33,995 bases of DNA from positions 1 to 33,995 of IMG/VR virus record IMGVR_UViG_2778261513_000009, one strand, 5' to 3'. A model generated the notes under the pieces. That model was not told the origin of the DNA. It ran no database searches and saw only the letters and a program-made list of their open reading frames with translations. The position numbers and the translations under genes were made by a program. Shown piece by piece: positions 1,447 through 33,519 of this stretch (the first letter of the stretch is position 1; each line of letters starts with the position of its first letter). The stretch comes from a virus. Its lineage: Duplodnaviria; Heunggongvirae; Uroviricota; Caudoviricetes.

Positions 1447-1533
1447 GCTGAAAAACATAACCCATAAAATGCTAGCTGTACCAGGAACCACCTCCTTAGC
1501 CTGTGTAATCTCCCTTACGCAGGCTTATTTTTT
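1447..1533 (+). ncRNA. cyaR: CyaR (RyeE) Hfq-dependent small RNA
   Basis: Sequence gctgaaaaacataacccataaaatgctagctgtaccaggaaccacctccttagcctgtgtaatctcccttacgcaggcttatttttt matches the cyaR sequence I recall, including the terminal hairpin and U-run; sits between yegQ and ogr as expected. Confidence 0.85.
1512..1533. repeat. attL core: left copy of the 22-bp imperfect direct repeat (cccttacgcaggcttatttttt) inside the cyaR terminator
   Basis: Matches 33498-33519 (cccttacacgggcttatttttt) at 20 of 22 positions. The right copy is the reverse complement of the P2 core AAAAAATAAGCCCGTGTAAGGG as I remember it. Confidence 0.7.
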
Positions 1534-1581
1534 GTCTGTAATTCACTGAAATAAAGGGATTTATTTCTTCCAATGTCCACA

Positions 1582-1598
1582 CATTGACCACATCGATA
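1582..1598. repeat. 17-bp perfect direct repeat cattgaccacatcgata, copy 1 (inside prophage, between att core and ogr)
   Basis: Identical 17-mer at 33552-33568; similarity extends upstream (tcttcca) with an 11-bp indel. Confidence 0.6.
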
Positions 1599-1600
1599 CA

Positions 1601-1631
1601 AAAAGCCCCGCAATTGCGGGGCTTTTCTTTT
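1601..1631. terminator. Bidirectional rho-independent terminator (stem gccccgc / gcggggc) at the 3' end of ogr
   Basis: Perfect 7-bp GC-rich inverted repeat with a 4-nt loop, flanked by A-run and T-run; lies just past the ogr stop. Confidence 0.6.
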
Positions 1632-1634
1632 GGC

Positions 1635-1856
1635 TCACAGCCAGGGCATTTGATGCTGACCGGTCATCGTCGGGTGCGGTGGAGCCGGTACGACTTCCCC
1701 CGGCGAAACGATGAAACGCTCAACGGTTTCAGTCGTGACAAAAGTACAACTGCAGTTGATGTTTGTGCACTGATGATACCGCTCTTTTGTGGTGTCAGAA
1801 AAATAGCGACTCGTGCGGGCATGGGCGGCGTAATGGCATTTCGGGCAGTGAAACAT
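1635..1856 (-). CDS. ogr: Ogr zinc-finger late transcription activator
   Basis: Translation MFHCPKCHYAAHARTSRYFSDTTKERYHQCTNINCSCTFVTTETVERFIVSPGEV... shows the Cys4 zinc-finger pattern and close similarity to P2 Ogr. The ORF track begins at an upstream GTG; ATG at 1856 is taken as the start. Confidence 0.9.
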   Translation of the reverse strand: MFHCPKCHYAAHARTSRYFSDTTKERYHQCTNINCSCTFVTTETVERFIVSPGEVVPAPPHPTMTGQHQMPWL

Positions 1857-1931
1857 GATGAGCACCTCTGAGCGTTTTCAATACAGTAATTTTACTCATT
1901 TTAACCTTATAAAACAAATACATATAGTAAA

Positions 1932-3101
1932 TTACTGCGCTATTTCTTCGCTCTCATACTCCACATCAGAAACCTTAACCTCAAGCTCTAAGCCCGTCGT
2001 GAAGCCGCTCCCGTTAAGGCTGTGCACCACACGGCTGATTATCCATGCCTGCTCGTCTATCACGCGCTTAAAGCCTTTCACGGCCACCGGCGTTTCGGGA
2101 AATAAATCAGCCCGGCCAGTGGCAAGCGTAATGGAAAACTCCGCCACGCCCCGCTGTATCTTGTCCCACTTTGCCTGAGCCGCGCGCATGGCCTGCGCAT
2201 TTGTGGCATAGATGGTCGTGAGCTCAAGAACGTTGTCCGACTCTCCGGCCATATACTCACCTTCCCGCGCTTCCTGCTCTTTTTTCTTCTTAGCCTTTGC
2301 TGATGTTTTGGTAGCTTTCGGGTGCTGCAGCGCGCGCAGGTGCTGCTCTTTGGGTTTACGTTTGAGCTTCACCTTTTGCTTTTGTGGTTTCGGGTCTCTG
2401 GTATGTAGCCATTTCGCCGTCACGCCGGTGTAAACCTCCCGGTCTGCAATGGCGAACTGATGGCGGTCGCCGTCGCCACGCTCGACGGTCATTTGAGGGA
2501 TCGGCTTACCACTGGCCGTCATCGCACTACCGGCTTTAAGGAATAATAATTTCCCGGCTTTCACCGACACGGATGCACCGTTACGCTCAGCAAGTCGGGA
2601 CAAAAACGCCGCGTCGGATTCCTGCGTCTGATCGATATGGGGAATGGCAATGGCTTTCAGGGCGTCAGCAACACTGGCCGTCAGCTTATTACGCTGCGCG
2701 ATGGTCTCCACAATCACCCCGAGCGTGGTGTCGTGCCATGACTGCTCGCGCCGCGAGTTTAGCGAGCCGCGAAAATCGGCGCTACGTCCCCGGATGGTCA
2801 GTGTATCAGGCGCACCCCGATGCTCGATTTCATCGACCGTGAAACTCCCCTTGTTGATCAGTGCGGAGCCCTGCCAGCCCAGCCACAGCGTCAGTGATGC
2901 CCCGCGCGGCGGCAGCTCAACCAGCCCGTCGGTATCATCGAGCGCGATATCGAGCTGGTCAGCCTCGAATCCGCGATTGTCGGTCATGGTCAGACCGATA
3001 AGCCGGTCGCTGAAATTCTGCGTGATATCCTCCCCGTCCAGCGTGAGCATATACGCAGGGGCAACACGCGCCCCGGCCTGAATATTCATTCCCGTTATCA
3101 T
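1932..3101 (-). CDS. D: Tail protein D (late control gene D family)
   Basis: About 388 aa, matches P2 gpD in size and position downstream of U. Start taken at ATG 3101, which overlaps the U stop (ATGA); an upstream in-frame start at 3122 is possible. Confidence 0.85.
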   Translation of the reverse strand: MITGMNIQAGARVAPAYMLTLDGEDITQNFSDRLIGLTMTDNRGFEADQLDIALDDTDGLVELPPRGASLTLWLGWQGSALINKGSFTVDEIEHRGAPDTLTIRGRSADFRGSLNSRREQSWHDTTLGVIVETIAQRNKLTASVADALKAIAIPHIDQTQESDAAFLSRLAERNGASVSVKAGKLLFLKAGSAMTASGKPIPQMTVERGDGDRHQFAIADREVYTGVTAKWLHTRDPKPQKQKVKLKRKPKEQHLRALQHPKATKTSAKAKKKKEQEAREGEYMAGESDNVLELTTIYATNAQAMRAAQAKWDKIQRGVAEFSITLATGRADLFPETPVAVKGFKRVIDEQAWIISRVVHSLNGSGFTTGLELEVKVSDVEYESEEIAQ

Positions 3102-3562
3102 CCTGCCAGCCCTCCCGCCCATTCACCGGCAGACGTGACCAGATTATCCGCCTGCGTTTTCAGGTCGCCATACATGGCCGCGAGCGACTCGTCGACGCGT
3201 TTCAGGGACAGAGTGAACTCGATTTTTCTCGCTGCACCGTCGCTGAAAAGCTCGGTGTGGTTATGAGTCACTTTATCGATAACGTACATCCCGTGGATCA
3301 TGCCGGTTCCGTCAATCAGTGGCCACGCACGCCCCTCGTCGGCCATCAGCTCAATCGCCTGCAACGACAGACGCCCGCCGGTGATTTCAGGGTAAAGCGT
3401 CCCCGACAGGGTGCGCGAGGTTTCCCCCTCCCCGAGAAACTGATAAGCCGGTCGTTTGCCGATACGGTCATTGGACACCCACCGGTAGTCCTTCGAATAC
3501 TGCATCGACTGATGCGGCAGGGTGCGCCGTTCAAACACAAAAAAGCCCAGCACCATTAACAT
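3098..3562 (-). CDS. U: Tail protein U
   Basis: 154-aa ORF between T and D, N-terminus MLMVLGFFVFERRTLP... resembles P2 gpU. Confidence 0.85.
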   Translation of the reverse strand: MLMVLGFFVFERRTLPHQSMQYSKDYRWVSNDRIGKRPAYQFLGEGETSRTLSGTLYPEITGGRLSLQAIELMADEGRAWPLIDGTGMIHGMYVIDKVTHNHTELFSDGAARKIEFTLSLKRVDESLAAMYGDLKTQADNLVTSAGEWAGGLAG

Positions 3563-3575
3563 TTTGCCCCCTCTC

Positions 3576-6014
3576 TCAGTCGAGTCTCATGTTGGATCGC
3601 TGACGCGCGCGCTTTTCACGGTCAAGTTTGTCGACGGCGTCGCGGAGCTGGCGGTCAAGGTCACCACCCGGCGCAACGCCACCCTGCAGGGTGATGTTGT
3701 ATTCGCTTTTGCTCTGGTCGATATAAGAGCGACCTGCAGGCGCAGTGACCGGCTGATACGCCTGATACCCACCATAACTCGCTGTCGCAGGGATATACCC
3801 GCCACCCGGTGAAGCCTTATCCGCGTTGGCTGCAGTCTGGTCGAGGTCGGTCGATTCTTTTTTGATAACGCCGAGTTTCTCCAGCAGCCAGTCAACCTTG
3901 CCGCTCAGGCTGTTAAACAGGTTGAGCGGCGTAATCAGCGCATCAGCCAGCGCCTGACCAAACGCCACGCCGACATTTTTGCAACTGTCGAGCGTGTCCT
4001 GCGTGGCTTTCACCGGTGCAAGCAGGTCTTTAAACCACTGGCAGACAACACCCAGCTTTTCCGCAATGGCATCAAACACCGGCGCAAGCGGGGTAAACAT
4101 TTCCCCCACCGGGGCAAAGGCGGCTTTTAGCCCCTCCACCACACCCGAGAAGAATGCGCCAATCGGCTCCCAGTATTTACGGATGAGCAGCGCACTGGCC
4201 ACCACCGCCCCGGCAACCGCCAGTACCGGCAGACTGATTGCGCCAATGGCCGTGACAATCGCGCCGCCGACCGTACTGAAAACCACACCGAGCACGCCAG
4301 CCGCCGCAATGATGGCATTAATCCCCATCACCACCGGCCATGCGATAAGGCCAATCCCGCCCATCACCCCGATCAGCGCCAGCGCGCCCCCGGCGACCAC
4401 GCCGAGGGTGGTCGCCAGCCCCTTATTTTTCTGGAGCCAGCCGTCAAGCCTGAGCACATACTGCGTGGCCGTCTGCGTCAGCTTACGCAGTGAGCCCTCC
4501 TGCTGGTCAAACAGGTCAGTCCCGACCGCCTCATAGGCTGACTGAAATTCTTTGAAGTCGCCGCCGAGGTTATCCTGCATAACCTTAACCAGCTCCTCAG
4601 TCTTGCCGTCCGAGGCTTTAAACGCGGCGGTGAGATTATCGAGCTTGCCGGTTGAGGCCGCCGTCATCAGCACGGCGGCCGCTGAGCTGGCCTCCTCCCC
4701 GAAAATGGTTTTCATGTATTCGGCTTTCTGGCCGGTTCCGAGATTATTTTTCTCAAAACTGCGCTGCATTTCTTTCAGGATGGAAAATATCGGGCGCGTG
4801 TTGCCCTTGCTGTCGGAGGTTTTGACCCCGAGCTCTTTGATGGCGTCGTAGGCTTTGCCGGTCGGTGCCTGCAGGCGACTCATGACCGCACGGCTTCCCG
4901 TTCCCGCCATCGAGCCGGTGATTCTGGAGTCGTGCAGCGCCCCCACCATCGCGGCGGTTTCCTCGATACTCACCCCGGCATTTTTCGCCACCGGCGCGGC
5001 ATAAGTCAGCGCATCGCTCATCCCGTCAAAATCGGCGGCGGTTTTGTTCATCGTCATCGAGAGAACATCGCCAATATGCGCGACCTTGTCGTTTGAAAGC
5101 TGAAACGCTGATTTCATCCCGGTCAGCAGCGCGGCGTTCTCTTCCATCGTGCGCCTGTTGGACAGCGCCATATTCAGCGTGACCGGCGTCGCCGCCTGAA
5201 TGGCCGCCGCATCCCCGCCACTTTTGGCGATAATAATCTGCGCCCCCGCCGCATCATCGGCAGAGGCCGCCGTATTGTCCCCGAGCTGGCGCGCCTGTTT
5301 GCGCAGCGCCTGCATTTCGGGTGACTGTTTGTCGACACCGAGCACCGCCTGCAGCTCTGAGTTCTTCTGCGCAAACTCATAGCCCGGCGTCAGCAGTTTA
5401 ACCCCGGCCATCGTTCCCGCCGTCGCAATACCGACACCGGCAGCGCCCGCCGCCGCGTTACCGGCCAGTGATTTACCGGCCTGATAACGTTCTTTCACCC
5501 GGCTTAACTTCGCCTGCTGTGCGCTGACTTTCGCCAGTGCCTCGCGCTGACGGTTGAGCTGGGCGGTGGTTTCACTGATACGGGATTTAAGCCCCCGCTC
5601 ATCATTTGCCAGATTACGGGTATTAATCCCCGCAGCACCGAGCTCGCGCTGCTGGCGCTTTATGGACTCCGTGAGGCTGTTGTATTTCGTCTGCAGCCCT
5701 TCGGCGGCACGCTTCGCGGATTCAAGTACCTGCGCCTGTGCGCGCGTCGGGCGCTCCGTATTTTTAAACTGCGTGGCGAGCGCTTCGGCCTCCTGTTTCG
5801 CTTTATCAAGCGCGTGACCGGTCACGGCAAGCTGTGCGCTGGCTTTTCGGAATCCGTCGATACGGGATGCCTGCGCATTCAGCTCGCGCAGGCTTTTCTG
5901 TGACGTGCGGATATCACCGGACAGGGATTTACTGGCGTTCTGAATCGCTTTGAGCGGTCGGCTTGCCCGGTCGACGGCATTCAGCAGCACCTCGATTCTG
6001 ACGTTATTGCTCAT
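3576..6014 (-). CDS. T: Tail tape measure protein T
   Basis: 812-aa ORF with a coiled-coil-rich N-terminal half and a Gly/Ala-rich hydrophobic segment; position after E/E' as in P2. Confidence 0.9.
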   Translation of the reverse strand: MSNNVRIEVLLNAVDRASRPLKAIQNASKSLSGDIRTSQKSLRELNAQASRIDGFRKASAQLAVTGHALDKAKQEAEALATQFKNTERPTRAQAQVLESAKRAAEGLQTKYNSLTESIKRQQRELGAAGINTRNLANDERGLKSRISETTAQLNRQREALAKVSAQQAKLSRVKERYQAGKSLAGNAAAGAAGVGIATAGTMAGVKLLTPGYEFAQKNSELQAVLGVDKQSPEMQALRKQARQLGDNTAASADDAAGAQIIIAKSGGDAAAIQAATPVTLNMALSNRRTMEENAALLTGMKSAFQLSNDKVAHIGDVLSMTMNKTAADFDGMSDALTYAAPVAKNAGVSIEETAAMVGALHDSRITGSMAGTGSRAVMSRLQAPTGKAYDAIKELGVKTSDSKGNTRPIFSILKEMQRSFEKNNLGTGQKAEYMKTIFGEEASSAAAVLMTAASTGKLDNLTAAFKASDGKTEELVKVMQDNLGGDFKEFQSAYEAVGTDLFDQQEGSLRKLTQTATQYVLRLDGWLQKNKGLATTLGVVAGGALALIGVMGGIGLIAWPVVMGINAIIAAAGVLGVVFSTVGGAIVTAIGAISLPVLAVAGAVVASALLIRKYWEPIGAFFSGVVEGLKAAFAPVGEMFTPLAPVFDAIAEKLGVVCQWFKDLLAPVKATQDTLDSCKNVGVAFGQALADALITPLNLFNSLSGKVDWLLEKLGVIKKESTDLDQTAANADKASPGGGYIPATASYGGYQAYQPVTAPAGRSYIDQSKSEYNITLQGGVAPGGDLDRQLRDAVDKLDREKRARQRSNMRLD

Positions 6015-6485
6015 GATGGTTTCCGCTTCGTTGCAGCGCCTTGTCGCGCCATGTCAGGAGCTCGGTCACGCTCAGGGAATATAACTCTGATGGCGGCCAG
6101 TGGAAAATCACCGCGATATCCGCCATCAGGTCATCGACCGACAGGTTTTTCGGAAAGGTCAGCGACCCGAAGCAGGCGACAAAAAACCGACCACCTTACC
6201 GGCCAGCGAAATCAGGTCAGAGGCATCGAGACGCGTGACCTCGTGCTCGGTCAGGGCGGGATACGTCATACGCGGCAGCACCTTAATCAGCGCATCAACG
6301 TCGGAATTCGCCAGCGAGGCCAGCGACACCCCGCGCAGGGTTCCGGCATTCGGTTTGGTCAGCGTGACCTGTTCAATTTTCTGCTCACCGCGCATCAGCG
6401 GGGTATCAAAAATCACCACATTCGGATTGACGGTTTCAGTATCAGCAACGGCAGTTTCATTGATATTTTTCATGGGTATTCTCAT
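6004..6485 (-). CDS. Tail assembly chaperone E+E' (fusion made by programmed -1 ribosomal frameshift)
   Basis: I translated the -1 frame by hand from the slippery site: it stays open through ...VACFGSLTFPKNLSVDDLMADIAVIFHWPPSELYSLSVTELLTWRDKALQRSGNHHEQ and stops at 6004-6006, overlapping the T start by 11 nt as in P2. Confidence 0.7.
6159..6485 (-). CDS. E: Tail assembly chaperone E (zero-frame product)
   Basis: 108-aa ORF ending ...GKVVGFLSPASGR; alternative start at ATG 6473 (MKNINETAV...). Located between FII and T. Confidence 0.8.
   Translation of the reverse strand: MRIPMKNINETAVADTETVNPNVVIFDTPLMRGEQKIEQVTLTKPNAGTLRGVSLASLANSDVDALIKVLPRMTYPALTEHEVTRLDASDLISLAGKVVGFLSPASGR
6180..6186 (-). 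other. Slippery heptamer T TTT TTG for the E/E' -1 frameshift
   Basis: Minus-strand sequence GGT TTT TTG read directly; 0-frame codons TTT TTG preceded by T, 7 codons before the E stop. This is the heptamer reported for the P2 E/E' frameshift. Confidence 0.75.
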
Positions 6486-6526
6486 CAGGAAAAGTGACCG
6501 GCCAGCCTCACTGACCGGGTAAGGGA

Positions 6527-7045
6527 TTACAGGCCAATCGCCCTGCGGTGTTCCGCCAGACGGTCGACGCCGTCGACTTTCAGCACCATGTTAACGACGT
6601 CAATCTCGATGACTTCGCGGCCATCAATCGTGAGCTGGTAATAGGCGCACTCGGTCGACATTTTGGTCGTGCCGCTTTCGCCCTGCTTGTTCTCACCGCC
6701 GTCATATTCTTTGTGACGGCCACGCATCACCACCTCGACGGCAGAAATCGCGCCGGTGTCATCACGCTGGAAAGAGCCGGTAAAGCGCAGCGGCACACTG
6801 TCAGCCCCCGGCGAGGCATACTGCGCCCACAGCTCAACGTCGGGCAGACCACCGAGCGTCCACTCCAGCGACAGCGCGTCGTCATCGAGGCCGAGGTCAA
6901 TTGACACCGCGCCCGGCATCCCGCCACCGCGATATTTCTCCAGCTTGCGGGTCAGCTTTGGCAGGGTGACGGACTCAACGACGCCCATGTGGCTGAGGCC
7001 ATCGTTGAACATATTCAGATATTTAAGTTTGCGGGGTAACGCCAT
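6527..7045 (-). CDS. FII: Tail tube protein FII
   Basis: 172-aa ORF immediately downstream of FI; size and order match P2 gpFII. Confidence 0.85.
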   Translation of the reverse strand: MALPRKLKYLNMFNDGLSHMGVVESVTLPKLTRKLEKYRGGGMPGAVSIDLGLDDDALSLEWTLGGLPDVELWAQYASPGADSVPLRFTGSFQRDDTGAISAVEVVMRGRHKEYDGGENKQGESGTTKMSTECAYYQLTIDGREVIEIDVVNMVLKVDGVDRLAEHRRAIGL

Positions 7046-7057
7046 GCTCTGAGCTCC

Positions 7058-8251
7058 TTAGCTGTTGACCGAGTCCGACAGATTCGCCAGATAGGTATCG
7101 GTGATGCGCTGGCGCAGGGTCAGGTTCTCCAGCGGCGGGACGGGGGTGTAGTCATAATCGATATACAGTTTCCCGACTTTCAGGGTCGCCGTCTCGTTTG
7201 ACTCCGGGTCATACCAACAGGAGCCGTCAACGATATACCCGTTATTTTTCAGCTCGCGGAATTTGGCATTGATACCCGATACGATGTCGCGAATGAGGGT
7301 CGGGGTAATGGGTTTATCCATCGCCCAGGCATGCGCCTCCGCCATTGTGTCGGCCAGTACCTGCGCGGTGCGGGTGTAGTTCTCATACAGGAAAAGCGGG
7401 TCATCTGAGCAGGTGCGGTTTCCCCAAAACTTGAAACCGTCATTGCGGATAAGCGTCGTAACACCGGCTTTGTTAAGCAGGTTGGCGTCGGTCGCGGGCT
7501 CCTGCAAATCCCACGACACCGAGGCGCTGACGCCGGTGACGCCATTCACGCCGACGTTTGACAGGGTTTTATGCCAGCCGACGGTCTGGTCAATTCTGGC
7601 ACGCAGACCGAGCGCGCGCGCCGTTGCCCAGGCTGTCGCAGTCTCATTCGCCGTTGTGTCCCATGCCAGAAAATCCGGGAAGATAACCATCAGCTCACGC
7701 TGGCTGAAATTCTCGCGGTAGTTAATGGCATCAGAAATGGTTTTGCAGCCCCACGCACTGACATAACCAAAGGCGCGCAGGCTCTGGCAGGTGGACGCGA
7801 GCGCCGTCGCCACTTCCTGTGAGTCCAGCCCCGGCACGCCGAGAATGCGTGGTTTCACGCCGGTGACGGTCTGCGCCGTCAGCAGCGCTTTCAGGCCGGT
7901 GTATTTGCCATTTTCGTCAGTCGTGCCGATGATGTTGGAAATGGTTTGTTTCTTCCCGGCCTCCGGATCATCCGGGTCTTCTGCGCCTTCGGCCACGCGC
8001 ACGGCCACAATGACCGGTTTGCACTGGTCAGCGATGGCCTGCAGGGATGTCGACAGCGTCCCCTTTTTGCCCGCCTTACCGATAGCGCTTTGCACGTTGG
8101 TAATGAGCACCGGCTCATTGAGGGGAAATGTCTTTTCGTCAGCATCGCTGGCCGTGCAGACCATGCCGATGATGGCCGTTGAGACGGTGGAAATGGTGCG
8201 CACGCCATCGTTAATCTCGATGACCTCTACGCCATGATGAAAATCACTCAT
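7058..8251 (-). CDS. FI: Contractile tail sheath protein FI
   Basis: 397-aa ORF (MSDFHHGVEVIEINDGVRTISTVSTAIIGMV...) matching P2 gpFI in size and position. Confidence 0.9.
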   Translation of the reverse strand: MSDFHHGVEVIEINDGVRTISTVSTAIIGMVCTASDADEKTFPLNEPVLITNVQSAIGKAGKKGTLSTSLQAIADQCKPVIVAVRVAEGAEDPDDPEAGKKQTISNIIGTTDENGKYTGLKALLTAQTVTGVKPRILGVPGLDSQEVATALASTCQSLRAFGYVSAWGCKTISDAINYRENFSQRELMVIFPDFLAWDTTANETATAWATARALGLRARIDQTVGWHKTLSNVGVNGVTGVSASVSWDLQEPATDANLLNKAGVTTLIRNDGFKFWGNRTCSDDPLFLYENYTRTAQVLADTMAEAHAWAMDKPITPTLIRDIVSGINAKFRELKNNGYIVDGSCWYDPESNETATLKVGKLYIDYDYTPVPPLENLTLRQRITDTYLANLSDSVNS

Positions 8252-8387
8252 CCGTTTAACTCCGTGGTTAAGGGTGAGTGTATTTTCTGTTGTGTGGTGG
8301 TGGCGGGCTATTTGTCAGGGTTGGATACGGTCTGACACAACCGGGGAGCAGGAAAGCGCGGGCAACCGCCCGCCTGAGTGATACCGG

Positions 8388-8966
8388 TTATGCGGGCAGT
8401 TCCGGCCATGTGATATCGGGTGCATCTTCGGGTTTGACCCTGTTGAGCATGACCCGATATTTTTTCCATTCATTAAGCGCGGTCGCTTCGTCTTCCGTTG
8501 CCATATCCAGATCAACGGCATCCTGCAGGGGGGCAATAGCCGATGTTGCAATCATCAGCAGGTTTGCTTTTTCCTGCGCCGCCAGCCCCTGACGAAATGT
8601 TTTTTCCGCTTCGGCATCGTGGATCCACTTAGCGCCATCCCATTTTACATACTCCCCGTCAGGAGCAACCGACACAACGTTATCAGGCAGAGCGCCCAGC
8701 TTTTCAATAACAACAGGCTGGCCTGTCTCGATGTCGTAGACAGTTGTCCCGCGATGGTCTTCAGTCTGCGACCACTTGCTGGCCTGTGCATCAAAAACAG
8801 CCACAAAACCCGCCGTCACTTTTGGGGGCGCAATATCGGTGCTGTATGCAGGCAGGCCTGTATTAGCCGGAATAAAGCCATCCCCTTTACCGATAAACTC
8901 ATTCGTGGCCGATGACAGGTTGTAAATCGTAATAACCCGGTTGGTGCTGGTCATTTTAAAAGCCAT
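8388..8966 (-). CDS. G: Tail fibre assembly protein G
   Basis: 192-aa ORF directly after the tail fibre gene; its ATG overlaps the H stop (TAATGG). Confidence 0.8.
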   Translation of the reverse strand: MAFKMTSTNRVITIYNLSSATNEFIGKGDGFIPANTGLPAYSTDIAPPKVTAGFVAVFDAQASKWSQTEDHRGTTVYDIETGQPVVIEKLGALPDNVVSVAPDGEYVKWDGAKWIHDAEAEKTFRQGLAAQEKANLLMIATSAIAPLQDAVDLDMATEDEATALNEWKKYRVMLNRVKPEDAPDITWPELPA

Positions 8967-10654
8967 TATGCAAGCCTCACTAAATAATTAAATGCGGTGT
9001 TTTTTACGGTGTTTTCTGCATTGCCCTCAGCATTGACCGTAATTGCGTGGTTGTGTGCGCCCAAAACAACATTATGGGTGTGAGCGCCGATGCCAACTGT
9101 ATGAGTATGAGCACCGATACCGACTGTATGGGCATGGTTGCCAGAGGTGCCTGTATTCAGGGTTCCCGTACCTGCCAATGCCTGGTTCCGGTCGCCATCT
9201 TTAACAGTCGTTGACGTTGGGGCTGTGTATGTATGAGCATGCGCCCCTGTGGTATTCGTTGTTTTTGTACCGTAGTCAAATGAACTGGTTGTTTTTGTCC
9301 CGTAATCAAATGCAGTCGCGGCCTTCGTACCGAGATCTGTATTTGCAGATGATGCTGAGTGCCCATGCGACTTAATACCATCCTGCTCCAGTGATAAAAC
9401 TGCACGACCGCTGGCTGGTTTGCCTTTGATGGTCTGACCGCGCATATCAGGAATCACCCCGGAGGGATACGCCACTGCAAGCAACGGATAGACTGATTTA
9501 TCAAAAGCCTGTCCCTGCATTAATCCATACCCTGCCGGGGGTGTATCAGACGGCCACGGAATCGGCGCCCCAACAGGAAAAGCATCATCGGGTGTCCACA
9601 TCGTCCACCGCTGCGTGGAATACTTGCTGCGTGAGTAGCTTCGTGAACTGCCATACACGCGATAAACCTGAGTCACTCCGGCACTTTTAAGTACCATCAG
9701 GGAGCCCGCTCTATTCTCCGGGTAATTCAGTGCTGCACTGGTATTCGCATTCATTGTCTGGTGATACAGACCCGGCGTCTGGTAATTATCCAGATTCTGG
9801 TCAGCACCAAGCTCGGTACACTGACCGTCAAAAATATCCTGTGAAGTGACGCTGATATCGCCCGTCAGCGGGTGTCCGTTAACGTTTCGCTCAGACGGGA
9901 CGCGACCATTCGCATTATCATTCACCGCCTTAACCGCTTTCGGCGTTGCGGCGAGCGCCTCAGACGTGCTGTCGGTGGCACTGCTGAGTTTCACCAGACC
10001 TTTCTGCGCTGTGCTCGCGTCCTGAGCCGTATATTTACCACTGGCAAGGTCATACACCGCCTTAACCGCTTTCGGCGTCGCTGCGAGACTCTCAGACGTG
10101 CTGTCGGTCGCATTGCTGAGTTGTACAAAGCCTTTTTCTTTCAGCGTGGCGTCAGGATGCCTGCGGGACTGCTCATGCTCTGCCAGTTTGTCGTCGACAT
10201 AATCCTGCGTCGCCATGACCGTTGTCGCGTCAATGGACAGCTCCACCGAGGCGATACTGCTGACAATAATCACCATGCGACAGGTCTGCGCACGCCCCGA
10301 GCCCTCCGCCAGCTCCGGCTTGTAGCTCTCCGCCATATTGGCAACGGCTATCAGCGTGCCTGCGTCATCATACAGACCCAGCTCACGCATCCAGAAGCCG
10401 CCCACCTCGGGAGGAATGACCAGCTCAGCCACGATATAGTTTTTATTTTTGTTGTCCTGGCTGATTTTATTCAGCGCATGACGCCAGACTTCATTGATGA
10501 GTTTTACCTGCCCGACGTTCGGCTCCGGCAGTGCGTCGCCGCCATCACCGACGGCCATCGCGGTAAGGTTCACTTTTTTACCACCCGGCACCGTCGCCGC
10601 CGCCAGTTTTGCAGCTCCGGCAGTGGTAATGATTGTTTTAAATTTCGTGCTCAT
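8966..10654 (-). CDS. H: Tail fibre protein H
   Basis: 562-aa ORF with a conserved N-terminus ([24 protein letters not shown]...), internal duplicated '[18 protein letters not shown]' segments and a C-terminal His-rich repeat ([30 protein letters not shown]). Confidence 0.85.
9923..9990. repeat. 68-bp imperfect direct repeat inside gene H, copy 1 (copy 2 at 10055-10122, offset 132 bp)
   Basis: caccgccttaaccgctttcggcg...cagacgtgctgtcggt...gctgagtt recurs with a few mismatches; encodes the duplicated [18 protein letters not shown] peptide. Confidence 0.7.
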
Positions 10655-10664
10655 TATTCCTCAC

Positions 10665-12096: not shown

Positions 12097-12101
12097 AGTG
12101 T

Positions 12102-13090: not shown

Positions 13091-13305
13091 AGATAAAGGA
13101 TGCCGAGGGGCAGAGAATCCAGCAACAAAATGGAGTTTGATGAGAGCTAAGACAACATACCCTAATACTATCTATCATTGATGAAAGCACATCAGAGCAA
13201 TGATGCTATTGTGAGCTAGCGCGAATTATCAACTTCCGCTTTTGCGGTAGGAATGCATATGTTTAAAATGTTATATTCAAGAAAAAATTGACTGAGAGAT
13301 CTTTA

Positions 13306-18256: not shown

Positions 18257-18259
18257 GGC

Positions 18260-19327: not shown

Positions 19328-19388
19328 TGTTATTCCTGTTTTTCTACAAAGGGGCATCAGGCCGGGTGACGCGCACCCGGCAGGTCTG

Positions 19389-22179: not shown

Positions 22180-22180
22180 C

Positions 22181-23278: not shown

Positions 23279-23283
23279 ATAAT

Positions 23284-24396: not shown

Positions 24397-24398
24397 AA

Positions 24399-25955: not shown

Positions 25956-26327
25956 TCCTAGCTCCATTAGTTCAATAAAATCAATCGATTTTGAGACAAT
26001 CTTAATATCTTTGACAGGCGCGCGCAATGCTATCCCCGCCACGCCTGCCCGCTTAACGGGTCGCTTTTAATGCAGTTGCATGACCACACAGGATCCGCGC
26101 CAGCTCTGGCGGCGCGCGGCCAGAACGGGCAACCCTGACGCATGCAAAGCAATGCACCTGTTGCATGCGCGGCTAAAAAACCGGGAAATTGTGGGAAAAT
26201 GGCATAATAAAACCGGCTTTAATCGTGCCGGTTGAGGTTGGTCTCTACGGGACAGGCTAACGCCTCGCGGGGCTCGTTGTTCAACCCCGCAGGCACTGAA
26301 AACAAGTTTCAGCACCGGCGGCGTTTG

Positions 26328-27028: not shown

Positions 27029-27033
27029 TAACT

Positions 27034-29319
27034 TTACTCCTCTTGCATTGAGAATCCCGGCCACTCATCAGCAGCCGCGTATTTGAATTTTTTATCGCCA
27101 TAAATCACCGTTGCCCCACGCGCCAGCGCTTCAAGCTCCCACCGTTCCGGGGTAATGCTCTCCTGAGCCAAATCGAAACGAATTTTCGCTATGCGATCCC
27201 TTTCTGGTTTTGTCATCCTGGCTGATGGCGCTTGCTCGCTCGTTTTGAGTGGAGCATGGCTTCTTTGCTGGCGATTTTTGCGAGGGATACCAGCTTTTAA
27301 CGCGCCGTTAAGCACCTTCATGACGTCTGGCTCATTCCAGCCGATAACCCCGCGCTCAATCAGATTTAACACCGCTGCGGCTTGCTCAGACGGTGTGGGT
27401 GTCATAACTGGAGCATCACCGCCGGTGAGCTTTCCACAGTTATTGACAGGACTCCGAGGCGCGGCAGAGCCGCTTTTTAAGGTCAAAGGCTCAACGGCCA
27501 AAATCTTTGGAACAATGCGCCATTCGGCTGTACGGGTTACATGTATGCGACTCGCCCCGAGGTGAGGGGCATAAATGCCGACCACTCTCTCGATATCTTC
27601 CTCATATTCGTTGACCTCATCAGTCACCTTACGGGCGACCCTAACGGCCTGCGCATCACGCGGCATGTTTGCCCCACCCTGTGCGATGATATACAGGTTA
27701 AATTCACCTTCATCAGCAGCAGCCCGGACAGCCTCGACCCGGTCGTCAAACTCACTGGCGATACTCACGCCGCGCGGCAGCTTGCGCAGTTCGCGGTAAG
27801 CGCCCATTGTCGGTAGGCCAATTGGTTTAAACTGCGGGATGCGCCATGTAGACGCCCATGCAGTTACGGCTGCGGCGGTATCTTTCAGAGGCTTTCCGGT
27901 GTCGTGGTCGATCTGGCCGTCGAGTGCGTAGCCGTCGATATTTTTGGCAATGTATTTAGCGATATAACCCGCCGCACCGCCCTGATTAAGATGACGTGAC
28001 TCAAAGCGCTGTTTTGCCGCTCCCTTTTCGTGCCCGTCCTCTTTGAGAGCATAACGACGCATAATTTCGTTAATAGCTTTACGCTGACCGGGTTTGCAAA
28101 ACAGCATCATGTGCCAGTGTGGCGTCCCGTCGTGGTGCGGTTCGACAACACGCATCCCGTAAACCTCTAAATCGTTATCTTTGAAAGCGGTGCGTATCAG
28201 GCTCCAGATTCGGCACAGATAGCGCTGGCCGTCTTTGGGGGTAAATGCGGTTTCATTCCAGCCATGATTGAGCTACACAGTTTTGTTTTCACCTTTGCCG
28301 ACCTGTCGGGTCGGGTGATACTTCGATGGCGTGGTCAGCGTGATAAACATCCCCACGTCACCAACGCAGGCCGCGTAGCGTTCAATCCCGGCGATAGTGT
28401 TCATCAGTTCCATACGCCGTATTTCAGGGTTAGAAATACTCCCCATTACCTTACTGATGAGGTCGATACGTTCGCCGGTGACTTTGTTTTCCAGCTCGCA
28501 GGATTTCAGGTATTCGAGATTAGCCAGGCGGCGCGCGTGCACATCGCGGATCGCCATTTTGCTTGCGTAAGGTGAGCGGTCTTTGTTGACCTCGCCAGCC
28601 GCAATAAGCAGCGCCTCGCGCCAGCGCATCCGCTGCGCCTTGAGCTGGCTGACCCACCACTCATCTTTTATCAGACGGGAAATAGCAGAAAATGCCATGC
28701 GGATCGTCATCTGACCCTTACGGTATTTTTTCCAGTACATCGGGGTGAAGTTAAAAGCGCGAGCAATACCGGCCACCTGACCGTATAAATGCGCCTGCGC
28801 CTCATCGGTGAATAAAGTGTCTTTCCCGCCGTGCGCCTCCTCCCATGCGTCGCTTAACTCCTCGTATTTGCTCCAGAGTTGAGAAGCAATTCTGGCCGCA
28901 AACTTCTTAAGCTCTTTGTCATTCATATCCGGCAGGCGCACATACTGGTCACGCTCGGACAAAAAACCAATCGAGGCGGATTCATTCATTCCGCACAGCT
29001 CATTAACACGCTCAAGACGCGGCAGCAACTTGCGCTCAAACGTGTTTTTGAGGAAATACAGCCCACCCAAGGGGCTCTTTGTGCGGCGGATGAAGTTATA
29101 ACGCGAGGTAAACAGCGTTTGCAGGAAAAACGGCAGGCGATCAATCCGGTTTAAAACACCTTGCACCTGACGGAGTTCGGCACGTGTAAGGGGTCTGTCG
29201 CGGCCAACTGCCTCGCGGGATTTATTCCACGGATAAGCACCGACGAAATTATCACCGGTGCTTTTTGGTAGTGGCGGAGGTGGCGAGGGGGCAACGCGCC
29301 CCCGAGTTTCAACGGCCAT
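27034..29319 (-). pseudogene. A: Replication initiation protein A (rolling-circle HUH endonuclease) interrupted by an in-frame amber codon at 28273-28275
   Basis: ORFs 28273-29397 and 27034-28155 are in the same frame; the 117 nt between them has no stop other than TAG at 28273-28275. The joined product would be about 761 aa from ATG 29319, carrying the HUH motif (HWHMMLF) and a tandem-tyrosine motif (YIAKYIAK). Confidence 0.8.
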
Positions 29320-29584
29320 CTGCAGCAAACGCAATCTGACATTGCTGACCAATGCGCTCGACCTGCTCGCCAATGTCCGCAAAACTAGCCGCCTCACCGG
29401 TCAGAATGCCATGTAATATCAGACCAGATACGAGTCTGGAAACTGTTGGATAATAGCCAATTACACCGAGCCACTCTTTACCGGCGCTCTTTCCTGATTT
29501 TGCGGTTTTCTTTTCCTGCAAAATAAATTGAAACTGGTCACTAGTGACGACGAAACGGTCGCCCACCTCAATATAAATTGACAT
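29309..29584 (-). CDS. Hypothetical early-operon protein (orf82/83-like position)
   Basis: 91-aa ORF immediately upstream of A, overlapping its start by 11 nt. Confidence 0.55.
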   Translation of the reverse strand: MSIYIEVGDRFVVTSDQFQFILQEKKTAKSGKSAGKEWLGVIGYYPTVSRLVSGLILHGILTGEAASFADIGEQVERIGQQCQIAFAADGR

Positions 29585-29883
29585 TATTTACCACCTTTCC
29601 GATTTAATTTTTTTAGCTCACACGCACAATATGTAGATTGTTCAGCCATGAATTGTATTAATTCATCCACAGTGGTTATTTTCTTGCGATAAATAGCACG
29701 TTTGACAATTAGGTCGACAACATCAGAAAACAGATTTAACTCATTCGAATAAATAGCGATAACTGACCCAACCATCAAGCCAGATTCTTTATCACTTTTG
29801 AGGTCAGACAGAGATAAATCACCATTTTTGAGAACGGCAACTTTTAACCAGCCATTGAGAATCACAGATTTCAGCACAGACAT
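29584..29883 (-). CDS. Hypothetical early-operon protein (99 aa, AT-rich)
   Basis: ORF tightly packed in the early operon; about 38% GC. Confidence 0.5.
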   Translation of the reverse strand: MSVLKSVILNGWLKVAVLKNGDLSLSDLKSDKESGLMVGSVIAIYSNELNLFSDVVDLIVKRAIYRKKITTVDELIQFMAEQSTYCACELKKLNRKGGK

Positions 29884-30140
29884 TAAACAGCCTCCCCACG
29901 GGCGAGACCTGCGTTATGAAGTACCGTTGATTCCTGGCTGAGTAACTCGACAATCTCAACACGCCCCAACTCCTGCGTAACGATATGTTGAATCAGTTTA
30001 TCCAGATGAAATGAGAATATAGTCGCTGCGTCGGCCTGCGCTTCTGCTCTGGCCTGCTGAAGCAATAAAGAAAAATTGCTGCTTTGCTTTTCCGTTCCTG
30101 TAAGCATGACTTTCTCCAGACAAAAAGAAGTCCCGCACAA
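29883..30140 (-). CDS. Hypothetical early-operon protein
   Basis: 85-aa ORF between B and the downstream small ORFs; start uncertain. Confidence 0.45.
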
Positions 30141-30170
30141 TCAAGTGCGTTTAAAATTTAGATTATTTAA

Positions 30171-30671
30171 TTAATGCAAATATTGCTCAGGCTTGACCGA
30201 TGTTAATATCGTCGGCGCGTACTCAAACAGGCTAAACAACTCACGTAAAGCACGAAATAAATTTTCACGCCAATAACATGATTCTTCATTAATACGCCAG
30301 TAAGGCTGATTAAATTCAACCTCACTTAACCCTGCATGTAAAAACAATGACCGCCGTTGGCTAACCGTTAGAAAACTAATATATGCGGACTCACTTGAGC
30401 CAACCTGACGACGTTTTGAAAATGCAGCACGTAGCTCGTCGATAGCGCACACCAGACGCTCCCGGTCTACATCGTTCATTTCTTCAAGACGCATCGTCGC
30501 ATGACGCTGTTTTAATTGAGCATGAAAACAGACCGTCAGGCGGTCGCGTTCCATCATTTGATTATAGAAATCACAGCTATCCTGCCAGCGGGGCGCTGCA
30601 AGATATTTACCAATCAGACTACGTAATCCTTCTGGCTGCTTGTCCACAATGGCAAGGGTCATAACCGTCAT
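30171..30671 (-). CDS. B: Replication protein B (helicase-loader-like)
   Basis: 166-aa ORF, same length as P2 gpB, with an N-terminus (…TLAIVDKQPEGLRSLIGKYLAAPRWQDSCDFYNQM…) that I recall as resembling P2 B. Confidence 0.7.
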   Translation of the reverse strand: MTVMTLAIVDKQPEGLRSLIGKYLAAPRWQDSCDFYNQMMERDRLTVCFHAQLKQRHATMRLEEMNDVDRERLVCAIDELRAAFSKRRQVGSSESAYISFLTVSQRRSLFLHAGLSEVEFNQPYWRINEESCYWRENLFRALRELFSLFEYAPTILTSVKPEQYLH

Positions 30672-30838
30672 AACGATACCCCTATGGATTTTATGAAGCG
30701 TTTAGTCATGGCAAAAAATCCCGGCTTACGGGTGCGGATGATGATGCCTTTACGTCCCTTACCGTGAGTAATCTTGAACGTCATCGGCTGGGGACTTTCC
30801 TTACGAAGTAGCTGCGCAATACAACGTGGTTCTTGCAT
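30668..30838 (-). CDS. Small basic hypothetical protein (56 aa)
   Basis: ATG 30838 preceded by a GGAGG ribosome-binding site; translation MQEPRCIAQLLRKESPQPMTFKITHGKGRKGIIIRTRKPGFFAMTKRFIKSIGVSL. Confidence 0.5.
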   Translation of the reverse strand: MQEPRCIAQLLRKESPQPMTFKITHGKGRKGIIIRTRKPGFFAMTKRFIKSIGVSL

Positions 30839-30937
30839 AAATCCTCCATTAAGTAGCCGGGTTTTGCCCATGCCCGGCACATGGTCTTGTGGTAGGATTG
30901 AATCGCCAAAAACAACTCCACCACTAAGAGGTAAAAA

Positions 30938-31129
30938 GTGAACAATCAAAAACTTAATGAATTAATTACCACTCTTGAACAAGCCGTAGCATTAATTGAG
31001 TCTCTACCAACCCCAATGGGTGACGTGGAAAAATCGAATCAAGTCGATGTATTGACAATTAAGTTAAGAGAATTAGCTCACTCAAAAAAACCAAATCATC
31101 TTCAAGGGTTTATTGATATAAACGACTAA
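30938..31129 (+). CDS. Small 63-aa predicted helical protein, convergent with the 139-aa gene (AT-rich cargo)
   Basis: GTG start with AAGAGG 6 nt upstream; AT-rich; stop overlaps the stop of the convergent 139-aa gene. Confidence 0.45.
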   Translation: MNNQKLNELITTLEQAVALIESLPTPMGDVEKSNQVDVLTIKLRELAHSKKPNHLQGFIDIND

Positions 31130-31545
31130 GCGTCTAATTCATGTGGTGCGGCTTTTTTGGGACGATGCGACCGCACCATCACATTAAAAATGTCATCCCA
31201 ATCATCTTTGCTCATTAGCGTAATACCCAGCTCCCGAGCCTTTTCTCTTACACAGCGCGCCAGATATAAACGATTATCAATACTTATCCCTATAGCCCTT
31301 TCTTTCATGCGGCCGTAGTTATCAGAAAGAAGCTGTATCAAGTCAAGGCGTAGTATTTCAACTGAGCCATCAGTGCTGCGAAAAACTAAATCATCACCAT
31401 CAATAAACACTGGTTCACTTTTGAGCTCTTCGCTACTCACCCACTTACGCAGACTTCGTGGAACAACAAGACTATTTGAAGGTGTCATTTCGTCTAATTC
31501 ACCACTGAATAAAGCCACTTTTATGGTTTTCAACTGATGTTCCAT
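31126..31545 (-). CDS. 139-aa hypothetical protein directly downstream of cox (AT-rich cargo)
   Basis: ATG 31545 with AAGGGGG ribosome-binding site; about 38% GC against a roughly 55% backbone; N-terminal segment LVVPRSLRKWV is faintly AbrB/SpoVT-like. Confidence 0.6.
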   Translation of the reverse strand: MEHQLKTIKVALFSGELDEMTPSNSLVVPRSLRKWVSSEELKSEPVFIDGDDLVFRSTDGSVEILRLDLIQLLSDNYGRMKERAIGISIDNRLYLARCVREKARELGITLMSKDDWDDIFNVMVRSHRPKKAAPHELDA

Positions 31546-31609
31546 TTCTACCCCCTTATGCCGACTGGTCAGCTAGCCATTCACAAACTGAGCGATGTAT
31601 TTCAACCGG

Positions 31610-31879
31610 TTAAGACCCTAAGCCCAACCACATTAGCCACCCTTCCCTAATTTCTTTCGGGCGACTTTCATATGCGAGTTTCATGCCGTTGTTCCATGCT
31701 GGGAGGTAAACCCAGTATTCACCTACTGTTCCGCTGGTTGACTGCGGATCAGTCATTTTAATAATGGGTAGCTTCCCTTTATCAATCATTCCCCGAACAG
31801 CCATGGGAGTCTTACCAATAAGCCTTGCGAACTCTTGATAAGGGACTGCATCAGTTACACTTACAAGCTGTTTGCTCAT
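31610..31879 (-). CDS. cox: Cox (excisionase / repressor of Pc)
   Basis: 89-aa translation MSKQLVSVTDAVPYQEFARLIGKTPMAVRGMIDKGKLPIIKMTDPQSTSGTVGEYWVYLPAWNNGMKLAYESRPKEIREGWLMWLGLG is near-identical to P2 Cox as I recall it. Confidence 0.85.
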   Translation of the reverse strand: MSKQLVSVTDAVPYQEFARLIGKTPMAVRGMIDKGKLPIIKMTDPQSTSGTVGEYWVYLPAWNNGMKLAYESRPKEIREGWLMWLGLGS

Positions 31880-31904
31880 CTGTTACGATTCTCCTTTAGT
31901 GCTA

Positions 31905-31941
31905 TTAATTGCTCTTAATGGGGTTTAATTGCTCTTAATGG
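31905..31941. promoter_or_regulatory. Two 17-bp direct repeats ttaattgctcttaatgg spaced 20 bp apart (putative operator at the early promoter)
   Basis: Perfect copies at 31905-31921 and 31925-31941 in the cox-C divergent region; P2 C repressor is known to bind direct repeats flanking the early promoter. Confidence 0.55.
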
Positions 31942-31971
31942 TGATTCACCCATCGGAAAGATAAATCTACG

Positions 31972-32000
31972 ATAGGTGATAATATTCAACTATAGGTGAT
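31972..32000. promoter_or_regulatory. Two 9-bp direct repeats ataggtgat spaced 20 bp apart, just upstream of C (putative Cox or C binding site at Pc)
   Basis: Copies at 31972-31980 and 31992-32000, ending 3 nt before the C start codon. Confidence 0.45.
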
Positions 32001-32003
32001 TTT

Positions 32004-32303
32004 ATGTCAATAGAGATTCATGAAAAAATCAAGCTCATCAGAGAGTCTGAAAGACTAAATAGAAGAGAATTCAGTGAGTTAACAGGGATCGTTTACGGTT
32101 CTTTTTGTAGCTATGAGGCTGGCGATAAAAAACCAGGTGTGGAGCAAATAATGAAAATCCTTCAACACCCGCGCTTCACCAAGTACACGATGTGGTTTAT
32201 GACTGATCAAATAACACCTGAAGCTGGGCAGATTGCACCGGCTCTCGCGCACTTTGGGCAGCCGACAACAACGTCACCCCACTCAGACCAGAAAACTGGC
32301 TAA
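32004..32303 (+). CDS. C: Immunity repressor C
   Basis: 99 aa, same length as P2 C; C-terminal ...FTKYTMWFMTDQITPEAGQIAPALAHFGQPTTTSPHSDQKTG strongly resembles P2 C. Confidence 0.85.
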   Translation: MSIEIHEKIKLIRESERLNRREFSELTGIVYGSFCSYEAGDKKPGVEQIMKILQHPRFTKYTMWFMTDQITPEAGQIAPALAHFGQPTTTSPHSDQKTG

Positions 32304-32399
32304 CAATTTACGGCGCTTTTTTGTGCAGTAAATGCACTGTGAGTTTTTGTTATTTAAATCAGGAAATTGAAGTACGCAGTAACATCATCGGGAGGCTTT

Positions 32400-33413
32400 A
32401 TGTCTGTTAAAAAGCTCGATGATGGTCGATATGAAGTGGACGTCAGACCTGCAGGGCGCAACGGAAAGCGCATCCGCAGGAAGTTCGATAAGAAAAGTGA
32501 AGCTATCGCTTTTGAAAAATATACTCAGTACAACCATCACAACAAAGATTGGTTGGCTAAACCGACAGATAAGCGGCATCTGTCAGAATTAACAAAAGTC
32601 TGGTGGGATTTGAAGGGCAAGCATGAGACTCATGGTCGAGATTATCTAGGAAAAATTGAGTTATTCACAAGGATTACAAGTGACCCATGCGCATTTCAGA
32701 TTACTAAATCATTGATTAGCCAGTACGGCACGGTGCGCCGTTCTCAGGGCATCAAACCATCGAGCATCAACCGCGATTTGACTTGCCTTAGCGGAATGTT
32801 TACCTCGTTGATAGATGCAGAGCTATTTTTCGGTGAACACCCTTTCAGAGGTGTTAAGCGACTGAAAGAGGACAAACCTGAAACTGGCTACCTCACGCAA
32901 GAGGAGATCGCTGATCTACTGTCGAAAGTCGATGGGGATAATAAGAAAATAGCGATTCTTTGTCTTAGCACCGGCGCGAGATGGAGTGAGGCTGCAAAAT
33001 TGAAAGCTGAAAACATCATCCAAAATCGCGTCACGTTCGTTAAGACAAAAACCAACAAACCGCGAACCGTTCCGATATCCGAGGAGCTGGCAACAATGAT
33101 CACATCAGGAAAGCGTGGCTATCTGTTCACGAACGCTAACTATCCTGCATTCAGACGATTAATGAAAGAGTTGAAACCGGACTTGCCACCGGGTCAGGCG
33201 ACGCACGCATTGCGTCACAGCTTTGCCACTCACTTTATGATTAACGGAGGCAGCATTATCACGCTTCAACGGATACTCGGGCACTCACGAATTGAGCAGA
33301 CAATGACCTATGCACATTTCGCCCCTGAGTACCTGCAGGACGCGGTAACGCTTAATCCTTTACGCGGTGGCACTGATGCTCTGAGTGTCCACACAATGTC
33401 CACGCTTGAATGA
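32400..33413 (+). CDS. int: Tyrosine integrase (P2 Int family)
   Basis: MSVKKLDDGRYEVDVRPAGRNGKRIRRKFDKKSEAIAFEKY... and C-terminal ...HALRHSFATHFMINGGSIITLQRILGHSRIEQTMTYAHFAPEYL match P2 Int as I recall it, including the catalytic R/H/Y region; GGGAGG ribosome-binding site. Confidence 0.9.
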   Translation: MSVKKLDDGRYEVDVRPAGRNGKRIRRKFDKKSEAIAFEKYTQYNHHNKDWLAKPTDKRHLSELTKVWWDLKGKHETHGRDYLGKIELFTRITSDPCAFQITKSLISQYGTVRRSQGIKPSSINRDLTCLSGMFTSLIDAELFFGEHPFRGVKRLKEDKPETGYLTQEEIADLLSKVDGDNKKIAILCLSTGARWSEAAKLKAENIIQNRVTFVKTKTNKPRTVPISEELATMITSGKRGYLFTNANYPAFRRLMKELKPDLPPGQATHALRHSFATHFMINGGSIITLQRILGHSRIEQTMTYAHFAPEYLQDAVTLNPLRGGTDALSVHTMSTLE

Positions 33414-33497
33414 TTTATAGTGGCTTTCAGTGGTCTTGCGTGCCGCGCAAACCCGCATTGCACCGCTGAAAGCCCCTGTTGTAGGGGTATAAAAACG

Positions 33498-33519
33498 CCC
33501 TTACACGGGCTTATTTTTT
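33498..33519. repeat. attR core: right copy of the 22-bp att core (cccttacacgggcttatttttt)
   Basis: Direct repeat of 1512-1533 with 2 mismatches; lies 85 bp past the int stop. Confidence 0.7.

Follow-up and report, generated by a model that had tools for sequence, protein, structure and literature searches.

A P2-family prophage in the Escherichia coli cyaR terminator whose unequal attachment cores point to a Citrobacter origin

Why should the two attachment (att) cores that bound a single prophage differ from one another? The 33,995-nt stretch of viral DNA analyzed here (IMG/VR record IMGVR_UViG_2778261513_000009, positions 1 to 33,995; hereafter the window, whose coordinates are used throughout) raises this question at the classical P2 site of Escherichia coli, in the terminator of the small RNA (sRNA) gene cyaR, where it carries a 32-kb P2-family (Peduoviridae) prophage with a P2-type tyrosine integrase. 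We propose, with considerable confidence from the comparison of alleles, that the two core mismatches reflect heterology between the phage site (attP) and the bacterial site (attB) during integration across genera, and not decay of the prophage ends. Prophages of this kind are already well known: ryeE/cyaR is an established target of phage P2 (PMC3603311), P2-type elements at this gene have been tabulated for E. coli W (Wphi2), K-12 (ogr-D') and B (P2*B) (PMC3032704), and cores of P2-like prophages have been deduced from their left and right junctions (attL and attR), some of them even where the two copies mismatch at a few positions (PMC3448106). Our additions to this picture are modest, namely a likely Citrobacter origin, a putative 7-bp exchange segment, a predicted tolerance of the sRNA terminator for a displaced wobble pair, and three E. 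coli attB alleles.

Prophage junctions and the empty site

A repeat search of the window returned a single direct-repeat family, consisting of AATCTCCCTTACGCAGGCTTATTTTTT at 1507-1533 and AAACGCCCTTACACGGGCTTATTTTTT at 33493-33519, with an identity of 23/27 and a spacing of 31,986 bp; core positions are numbered 1 to 27 within this 27-mer. Its inner 22-mer, CCCTTAC[G/A]C[A/G]GGCTTATTTTTT, occupies 1512-1533 and 33498-33519 with 20/22 positions identical, and no third copy of this 22-bp core was found elsewhere in the window with up to three mismatches, nor in 100 shuffles. A sequence-only reading of this DNA had set the prophage ends at 1507 and 33519 and had described 22-bp cores differing at two positions (acgcagg on the left, acacggg on the right). 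Both differences were recovered, as G at 1519 versus A at 33505 and A at 1521 versus G at 33507, and the proposed ends are the outer edges of the two 27-mers. Alignment to unoccupied sites agreed with them: a composite query made by joining window positions 1101-1512 to 33499-33995, searched in 5,426 complete E. coli genomes, was matched without a break by E. coli E2865 and others at 909/909 nt. At least 80% of this query was covered in 4,565 of 5,424 genomes, so about 16% hold a large insert at the site. The E. coli attB is AATCTCCCTTACACGGGCTTATTTTTT, which is the annotated attP core of phage P2 and also the 3' half of the cyaR terminator.

The sequence-only reading had itself pointed to a shorter repeat as the place to which an empty-site alignment might move the junctions. 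This repeat, the exact 17-mer CATTGACCACATCGATA, lies near both ends (1582-1598 and 33552-33568), which is all that speaks for it. The alignment placed the junctions at the 27-bp core instead, and we rule out the 17-mer: empty sites run continuously from cyaR through the core to ATGCATAAGCC...CATTGACCACATCGATA, so that the right copy of the 17-mer lies inside uninterrupted host DNA, in a relic of a P2-type P arm. The relic, recognized by alignment to the P arms of P2 and K-12, occupies the host right flank at 33520-33575, is present in empty sites, and holds one TGACCAC arm repeat in addition to the 17-mer copy; its counterpart in K-12 is at 2331-2390 of locus L001. The "empty" E. coli site was therefore already scarred by an older P2-like element.

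Origin of the core alleles and the segment of strand exchange

The left-copy core, CCCTTACGCAGGCTTATTTT, was scanned in one genome per bacterial species and in IMG/VR. It is the native cyaR 3' half at unoccupied sites of many Citrobacter species and of Atlantibacter, Kosakonia, Lelliottia, Enterobacter, Siccibacter, and Franconibacter, likewise of Salmonella enterica subsp. arizonae and diarizonae, and at these native sites its partner is a perfectly complementary GCCTGCGTAA 5' arm. In Citrobacter lysogens, prophages are found that share the P' flank of the window (...GTAGGGGTATAAAAACG) and read ACGCAGG at both ends. One such prophage, UViG_2773857889_000004, is 99.7% identical to window positions 29523-33519 and 95-97% identical to 1596-13109, reads ACGCAGG at both ends, and has a host flank 99.3% identical to Citrobacter portucalensis A60. 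Given that both att copies of this relative are ACGCAGG, its attP was ACGCAGG wherever the crossover lies, the two copies being identical because attB equals attP in that host. Taken with C. youngae CCUG 30791, the Citrobacter prophages at cyaR share with the window a late region at 97% identity, an integrase and lysogeny switch (int/switch) region at 91-99.7%, an identical P' arm and the ACGCAGG core, and differ from it in mosaic tail-fibre and P-arm segments. Among the 5,426 E. coli genomes, only E. coli UTAK-6 holds the int/switch region at 99% identity or more. These findings thus argue that the phage belongs to Citrobacter and entered E. coli from there.

We propose that the incoming phage would have had as its attP core the cyaR allele native to Citrobacter and to numerous further enterobacteria (CCCTTACGCAGGC...), whereas the E. 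coli recipient would have had CCCTTACACGGGC... at the same place. The predicted attP core is AAACGCCCTTACGCAGGCTTATTTTTT, within a predicted attP of ...GTAGGGGTATAAAAACGCCCTTACGCAGGCTTATTTTTTGTCTGTAATTC..., and the predicted restored attB is AATCTCCCTTACACGGGCTTATTTTTTATGC. Compared over 27 positions, the inferred attP (AAACGCCCTTACGCAGGC...) and the E. coli attB (AATCTCCCTTACACGGGC...) differ at four, and the inner 22 bp of the former match Citrobacter cyaR. No record of the phage collection has an integrase (Int) closer than 83% to that of the window, so none supplied an attP sequence. Two viral contigs, L074 and L075, were considered as P'-core-P attP sites and rejected, both in fact holding attR beside the P-arm relic and then host genes.

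The host allele is read from E2865, whose site is empty and shows ACACGGG. Its flank haplotype is that of UTAK-6, and the sole differences from the window are nine yegQ positions that it shares with that strain. With this host allele and the Citrobacter phage allele, core positions 13 and 15 are phage-derived in attL (1507-1533, + strand; G at 1519, A at 1521) and host-derived in attR (33493-33519, + strand; A at 33505, G at 33507). Core positions 3 and 5 are of host type in attL (T at 1509, T at 1511) and of phage type in attR (A, G), where the five leftmost nucleotides (AAACG) are all of phage type. This pattern of host and phage bases on either side places the exchange within the seven shared bases CCCTTAC (1512-1518 and 33498-33504), and we infer that strand exchange was confined to this segment, which comprises the last three loop bases and the first four bases of the terminator 3' arm. 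In this way four natural att heterologies would bracket exchange by a P2-type integrase to 7 bp, experiment-free.

Population counts agree with this assignment: ACGCAGG follows cyaR in 26 of the 5,426 E. coli genomes, at 23 occupied and 3 empty sites, and it directly precedes the host right flank in 4 genomes, which are the same 3 empty sites and the lysogen O121 201805972. Several points weigh against it. The right flank of the three empty sites is identical to that of the window, making a natively ACGCAGG host possible in principle. In O121 201805972 the arrangement is reversed, with ACACGGG in attL, ACGCAGG in attR, and P2-type arms; it agrees with the ACGCAGG empty sites at 1399/1400 flank positions. 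The proposed model accommodates this lysogen only on the condition that the rare allele was present in its host, in which case its pattern is the one predicted for a P2-type phage entering such a host. Further, the genomes of the census are phylogenetically non-independent, heteroduplex repair could blur the limits drawn for the crossover, and no virion or excised-circle sequence was found, attP having been deduced from two lysogens.

These observations bear on three other accounts of the mismatch. Were the host natively ACGCAGG and the phage attP ACACGGG, with the exchange lying to the right of core position 15, the left copy would be host sequence throughout and the phage allele would stand in the right copy. 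Besides the three empty sites with their shared right flank, this account can draw on P2 itself, which is ACACGGG, and on the prophage of APEC O1, which has P2-type arms and the same combination of ACGCAGG in attL and ACACGGG in attR, as does that of ATCC 11775. Yet the 99.7%-identical Citrobacter prophage needs an ACGCAGG attP under either model, and E2865, which shares the flank haplotype of the lysogen, reads ACACGGG. The three ACGCAGG empty sites differ in yegQ haplotype at about 27 single-nucleotide polymorphisms (SNPs), on which ground they were rejected as the window's own lineage, and about 88% of the cyaR-side ACGCAGG copies (23/26) stand at occupied sites, against about 16% of genomes occupied overall. 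We therefore regard a natively ACGCAGG host as improbable.

A different course of events would follow if core positions 13-15 lay inside the Int overlap region, such that integration produced a heteroduplex and replication or mismatch repair then fixed one of two reciprocal outcomes. E. coli does show both arrangements, the window and APEC O1 representing one and O121 201805972 its reverse, but they are strongly skewed (about 23 to 1), and the sole reverse case has P2-type arms and a host flank matching the ACGCAGG empty sites. For tyrosine integrases, as established with lambda Int, heterology within the overlap is strongly inhibitory, which also counts against this course of events; we consider it very improbable. 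As for two point mutations gained by one of two initially identical copies, old prophages do gather such changes, though nothing specific speaks for them here. Each copy is instead a widespread natural allele, ACGCAGG in Citrobacter and relatives and ACACGGG in E. coli; UTAK-6 has the same att pair with only 25 differences over the whole 34-kb locus; and the chance recreation of a known allele by two mutations within three bases is very unlikely, so that later mutation is scarcely credible. Cross-genus integration of a phage with a Citrobacter-type attP accordingly remains the explanation that we favor.

The hybrid cyaR terminator

The Rfam model CyaR (RF00112) matches the window at 1445-1530 with 100.2 bits (E 4e-19; gathering score 47), and the cyaR gene at 1447-1533 (+ strand) is collinear with K-12 cyaR (b4438), its final 15 nt (1519-1533) being assigned to the phage. 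The left att copy forms the 3' half of the terminator hairpin at 1498-1525 (+ strand), in which a host 5' arm (1498-1508) is followed by the loop (1509-1514), the 3' arm (1515-1525) and then UAUUUUUU. All 11 terminator pairs form: U1502-A1521 is a Watson-Crick pair and U1504.G1519 a wobble in the lysogen, and the native 3' arm puts the wobble at the other U. A G-U wobble shifted by two positions, as the sequence-only reading had it, is thus confirmed by the pairing. Since uridines of the 5' arm face both variable positions, either allele yields one U-A and one G.U pair and leaves the stem unchanged.

Predicted folds gave the same 11-bp stem followed by UAUUUUUU for all four natural allele combinations, within a range of -15.9 to -18.1 kcal/mol. 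The native Citrobacter terminator is the most stable (-18.1 kcal/mol), followed by that of ST131-type E. coli with ACACAGG (-16.6 kcal/mol), the hybrid attL terminator of the window (-16.2 kcal/mol), and that of K-12-type E. coli with ACACGGG (-15.9 kcal/mol); the predicted fold of full-length CyaR does not change in the hybrid. The earlier description of a terminator reshaped but not destroyed holds in its second half, and "reshaped" is too strong for a predicted change of only 0.3 kcal/mol between the native and hybrid forms. From these folds no functional effect on termination is predicted, and the small RNA would keep a normal terminator. Under the mechanism that we propose, the phage attP would bring its own terminator half, integration would swap the 3' arm and U-tract of the host for those of the phage, and cyaR would keep a complete terminator.

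This arrangement recalls the integrases that target tRNA and tmRNA 3' ends (P4 at leuX, 186 at a tRNA-Ile gene, Fels-2/SopE-phi at ssrA), in which a phage-borne surrogate 3' end likewise restores the RNA gene and crossover likewise falls at the loop/stem boundary of a hairpin, a logic discussed previously (PMC3448106, PMC3603311). In contrast to those systems, the target here is an sRNA terminator and the identity block is short (22-27 bp). The cryptic K-12 prophage PR-X (ogrK-yegZ), Wphi2, and P2*B share the locus, the orientation, and an attL inside cyaR. The K-12 locus, as the sequence-only reading stated, holds only an ogrK/yegZ remnant: cyaR is followed by a core of native type, ogrK, the pseudogene yegZ, and a second core that is truncated. 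PR-X has kept only 629 bp, its attL being of native type (ACACGGG) and its attR incomplete, whereas the window holds a whole 32-kb element with a heterologous attL.

Unoccupied E. coli sites carry at least three alleles of the cyaR 3' arm, as listed from JJ1887, 510016, LH13-b, and K-12: ACACGGG (K-12 type), ACACAGG (ST131, with a perfect stem), and ACGCAGG (3 genomes). The rare ACGCAGG allele may be ancestral in E. coli or may be the footprint of a lost prophage. Tentatively, and with some doubt, we suggest that whenever a P2-family phage passes from one genus to another, the allele of the donor genus replaces the 3' half of the cyaR terminator in the recipient, which would make phage traffic a source of the polymorphism in E. 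coli. If this were true, the three empty ACGCAGG sites (of 26 ACGCAGG genomes among 5,426) could be footprints of lost prophages, and the tolerance of the 5' arm for A or G at both positions would make the cyaR terminator a cross-genus landing site. For the sRNA little would change: about 16% of complete E. coli genomes have a P2-type prophage at cyaR, which is predicted to leave it intact. The locus would also offer a clean natural case of a temperate phage passing from Citrobacter to E. coli by way of a diverged attB.

Gene content, state, and cargo of the prophage

The element shows the P2 gene order of ogr, D...V, S, R, lysis, X, L, M, N, O, P/Q, cargo, A, early genes, a gpB-like gene, cox, C, and int; gene names were taken from the open reading frames (ORFs) of the window and from the annotation of the 99.9%-identical UTAK-6 locus. 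Matches to the window were found in 160 peduovirus records. Its Int shares 83.1% identity with that of P2 across the full 337 residues, and the int-attP-ogr segment is collinear with that of P2 at about 73% DNA identity. Because the closest sequenced phages (Salmonella phages FSLSP004 and SEN1) reach only about 78% DNA identity, in the late region, we take the prophage to be an undescribed member of the P2 family. Compared with P2 at its preferred site locI (the cyaR/ryeE 3' end), the window has the same attB, the same layout of int, P' arm, core, IHF site, P arm, and ogr, and the same gene order; it differs in an attP core deviating at 4/27 positions, in its other cargo, and in an amber codon in gene A.

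Flanking the cores, the P arm (1534-1600) includes a homologue of the P2 IHF site and the arm repeats TGTCCAC at 1574 and TGACCAC at 1585, which lie 11 bp apart. The P' arm (33386-33492) has TGTCCAC at 33386 and 33397, followed by a region homologous to the Cox-binding stretch of P2. All these IHF, Cox, and arm-type Int sites are putative, having been assigned by homology to the annotated P2 attP and by a repeat scan. The arm repeats fit the P2-type arm-site consensus tgTGGaCa (PMC3448106).

Reading inward from attL, a terminator hairpin of ogr and the tail operon at 1598-1622 (- strand; GCCCCGCAATTGCGGGGC and then a T run on the minus strand) is homologous to the annotated P2 terminator. It is followed by ogr, a zinc-finger late-gene activator (1635-1856, - strand; NCBIfam PRK09678, 5e-39), and by the tail genes D, U, T, E/E', FII, FI, G, H, I, J, W, and V (1932-13090, - strand), identified from ORFs and the UTAK-6 annotation. 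On the same basis S, R, the lysis genes, X, L, M, N, and O (- strand) and the terminase gene P and portal gene Q (+ strand) were assigned to 14563-23188. Beyond the cargo and gene A, the early genes at 29309-31545 (- strand) include by annotation two DUF5405 genes, one DUF2732 gene, a gpB-like gene of 166 amino acids, and small ORFs, with a phrog_235 match for 30171-30671. The lysogeny switch and int fill 31610-33413 and comprise cox (31610-31879, - strand), the C repressor with a helix-turn-helix (32004-32303, + strand), and int (32400-33413, + strand), assigned by annotation and by the Pfam domains Int_N and Phage_integrase. A cos site was looked for in the element and not located.

In the replication endonuclease gene A (27034-29319, - strand), an amber codon at 28275-28273 breaks the reading frame (...GENKTV*LNHGW...), the window having TAG and UTAK-6 CAG, the latter being the strain that carries the same prophage and differs at 25 positions over the whole 34-kb locus. 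All other P2 core genes have open frames, so that gene A is the one place where the gene set expected of a viable phage is not intact. The description of a full P2-like prophage in the sequence-only reading accordingly stands for gene content, not for gene A. Judged from its reading frames the prophage is structurally complete but probably replication-defective, or else the amber codon is a sequencing error.

Between portal gene Q and gene A, at a P2 hotspot, lies a two-gene cargo cassette (23284-26042, - strand). Its ATPase, an ABC-type protein of 547 amino acids (24399-26042, - strand), matches Pfam AAA_15 (1.6e-26), AAA_21 (7e-19), and DUF3696; in PADLOC it scores better with NsnB (7e-55) than with AriA (3.6e-31), and PDC-M55A also scores better than AriA. 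The partner, of 370 amino acids (23284-24396, - strand), has a predicted fold that resembles the Toprim domains of OLD and AriB, with invariant DxD, E, and H residues compatible with a Toprim-type site. It has no match in Pfam, PADLOC, PHROGs, or NCBIfam, DUF4435/AriB included, and its own profile does not recover AriB among Protein Data Bank (PDB) sequences. The partner family is tiny, with 31 clusters among 5.8 billion proteins, and the same ATPase-partner pair occurs in the hotspot of P4-like satellites of Pectobacterium. At window position 23389, near the 3' end of the partner gene, there is one extra base relative to UTAK-6, giving 370 amino acids (the usual length in the family) versus the 340 annotated in that strain.

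Like PARIS, which pairs the ABC ATPase AriA with the DUF4435/Toprim nuclease AriB, the cassette is a two-gene pair of an ATPase and a putatively Toprim-like partner in a P2/P4 hotspot (PMC9122126). It differs from PARIS in that the partner lacks a DUF4435/AriB match and in that the ATPase is nearer to NsnB and PDC-M55A and carries DUF3696. The detection rule for PARIS requires DUF4435 (AriB) (PMC9122126), and the cassette falls outside it. On the strength of the predicted fold, we put the pair forward as a candidate PARIS-like defence system, possibly working like PARIS or OLD-family systems and overlooked by current models; as a rare, unannotated ATPase and Toprim-like pair in a known defence hotspot, it makes a testable anti-phage candidate. 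A further ORF of 404 amino acids (13288-14502, + strand), which separates baseplate gene V (gpV) from S (gpS) and runs opposite to them, is likely another cargo gene and has no match in Pfam, PADLOC, PHROGs, or NCBIfam.

The prophage is flanked on the left by host yegQ/trhP (1-1362, + strand; a 453-amino-acid ORF, annotated as yegQ in UTAK-6 and present at 95-99% in all E. coli genomes) and on the right by yegR (33678-33995, - strand), identified from its ORF and the annotation of the UTAK-6 locus. Compared with UTAK-6 and E2865, whose flanks are otherwise identical, the window has a cluster of nine SNPs in yegQ (positions 861-1065) that resembles a small patch of recombination. The cyaR core directly joins the region upstream of yegS in E. 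albertii, E. whittamii, and Escherichia sp. E1V33, without the ~0.8-kb segment that comprises the P-arm relic and yegR; this segment is specific to E. coli and located exactly at the P2 att site. A phage-borne origin of yegR was rejected, its tblastn matches in phage records being confined to two that contain host flank. At the right end of the yegR segment, comparison with the core by eye gave only about 10/22 matches, and no core remnant is claimed there.

Two differences from UTAK-6 concern the tail genes. The tape-measure gene has a 3-bp deletion relative to that strain (window position 5447). The tail-fibre gene H (8966-10654, - strand) is one intact ORF of 562 amino acids in the window, whereas UTAK-6, which differs here by a single SNP, is annotated with four pseudogene fragments, and the gene contains an internal 99-nt repeat (9905-10003 and 10037-10135) with 82% identity between its copies.

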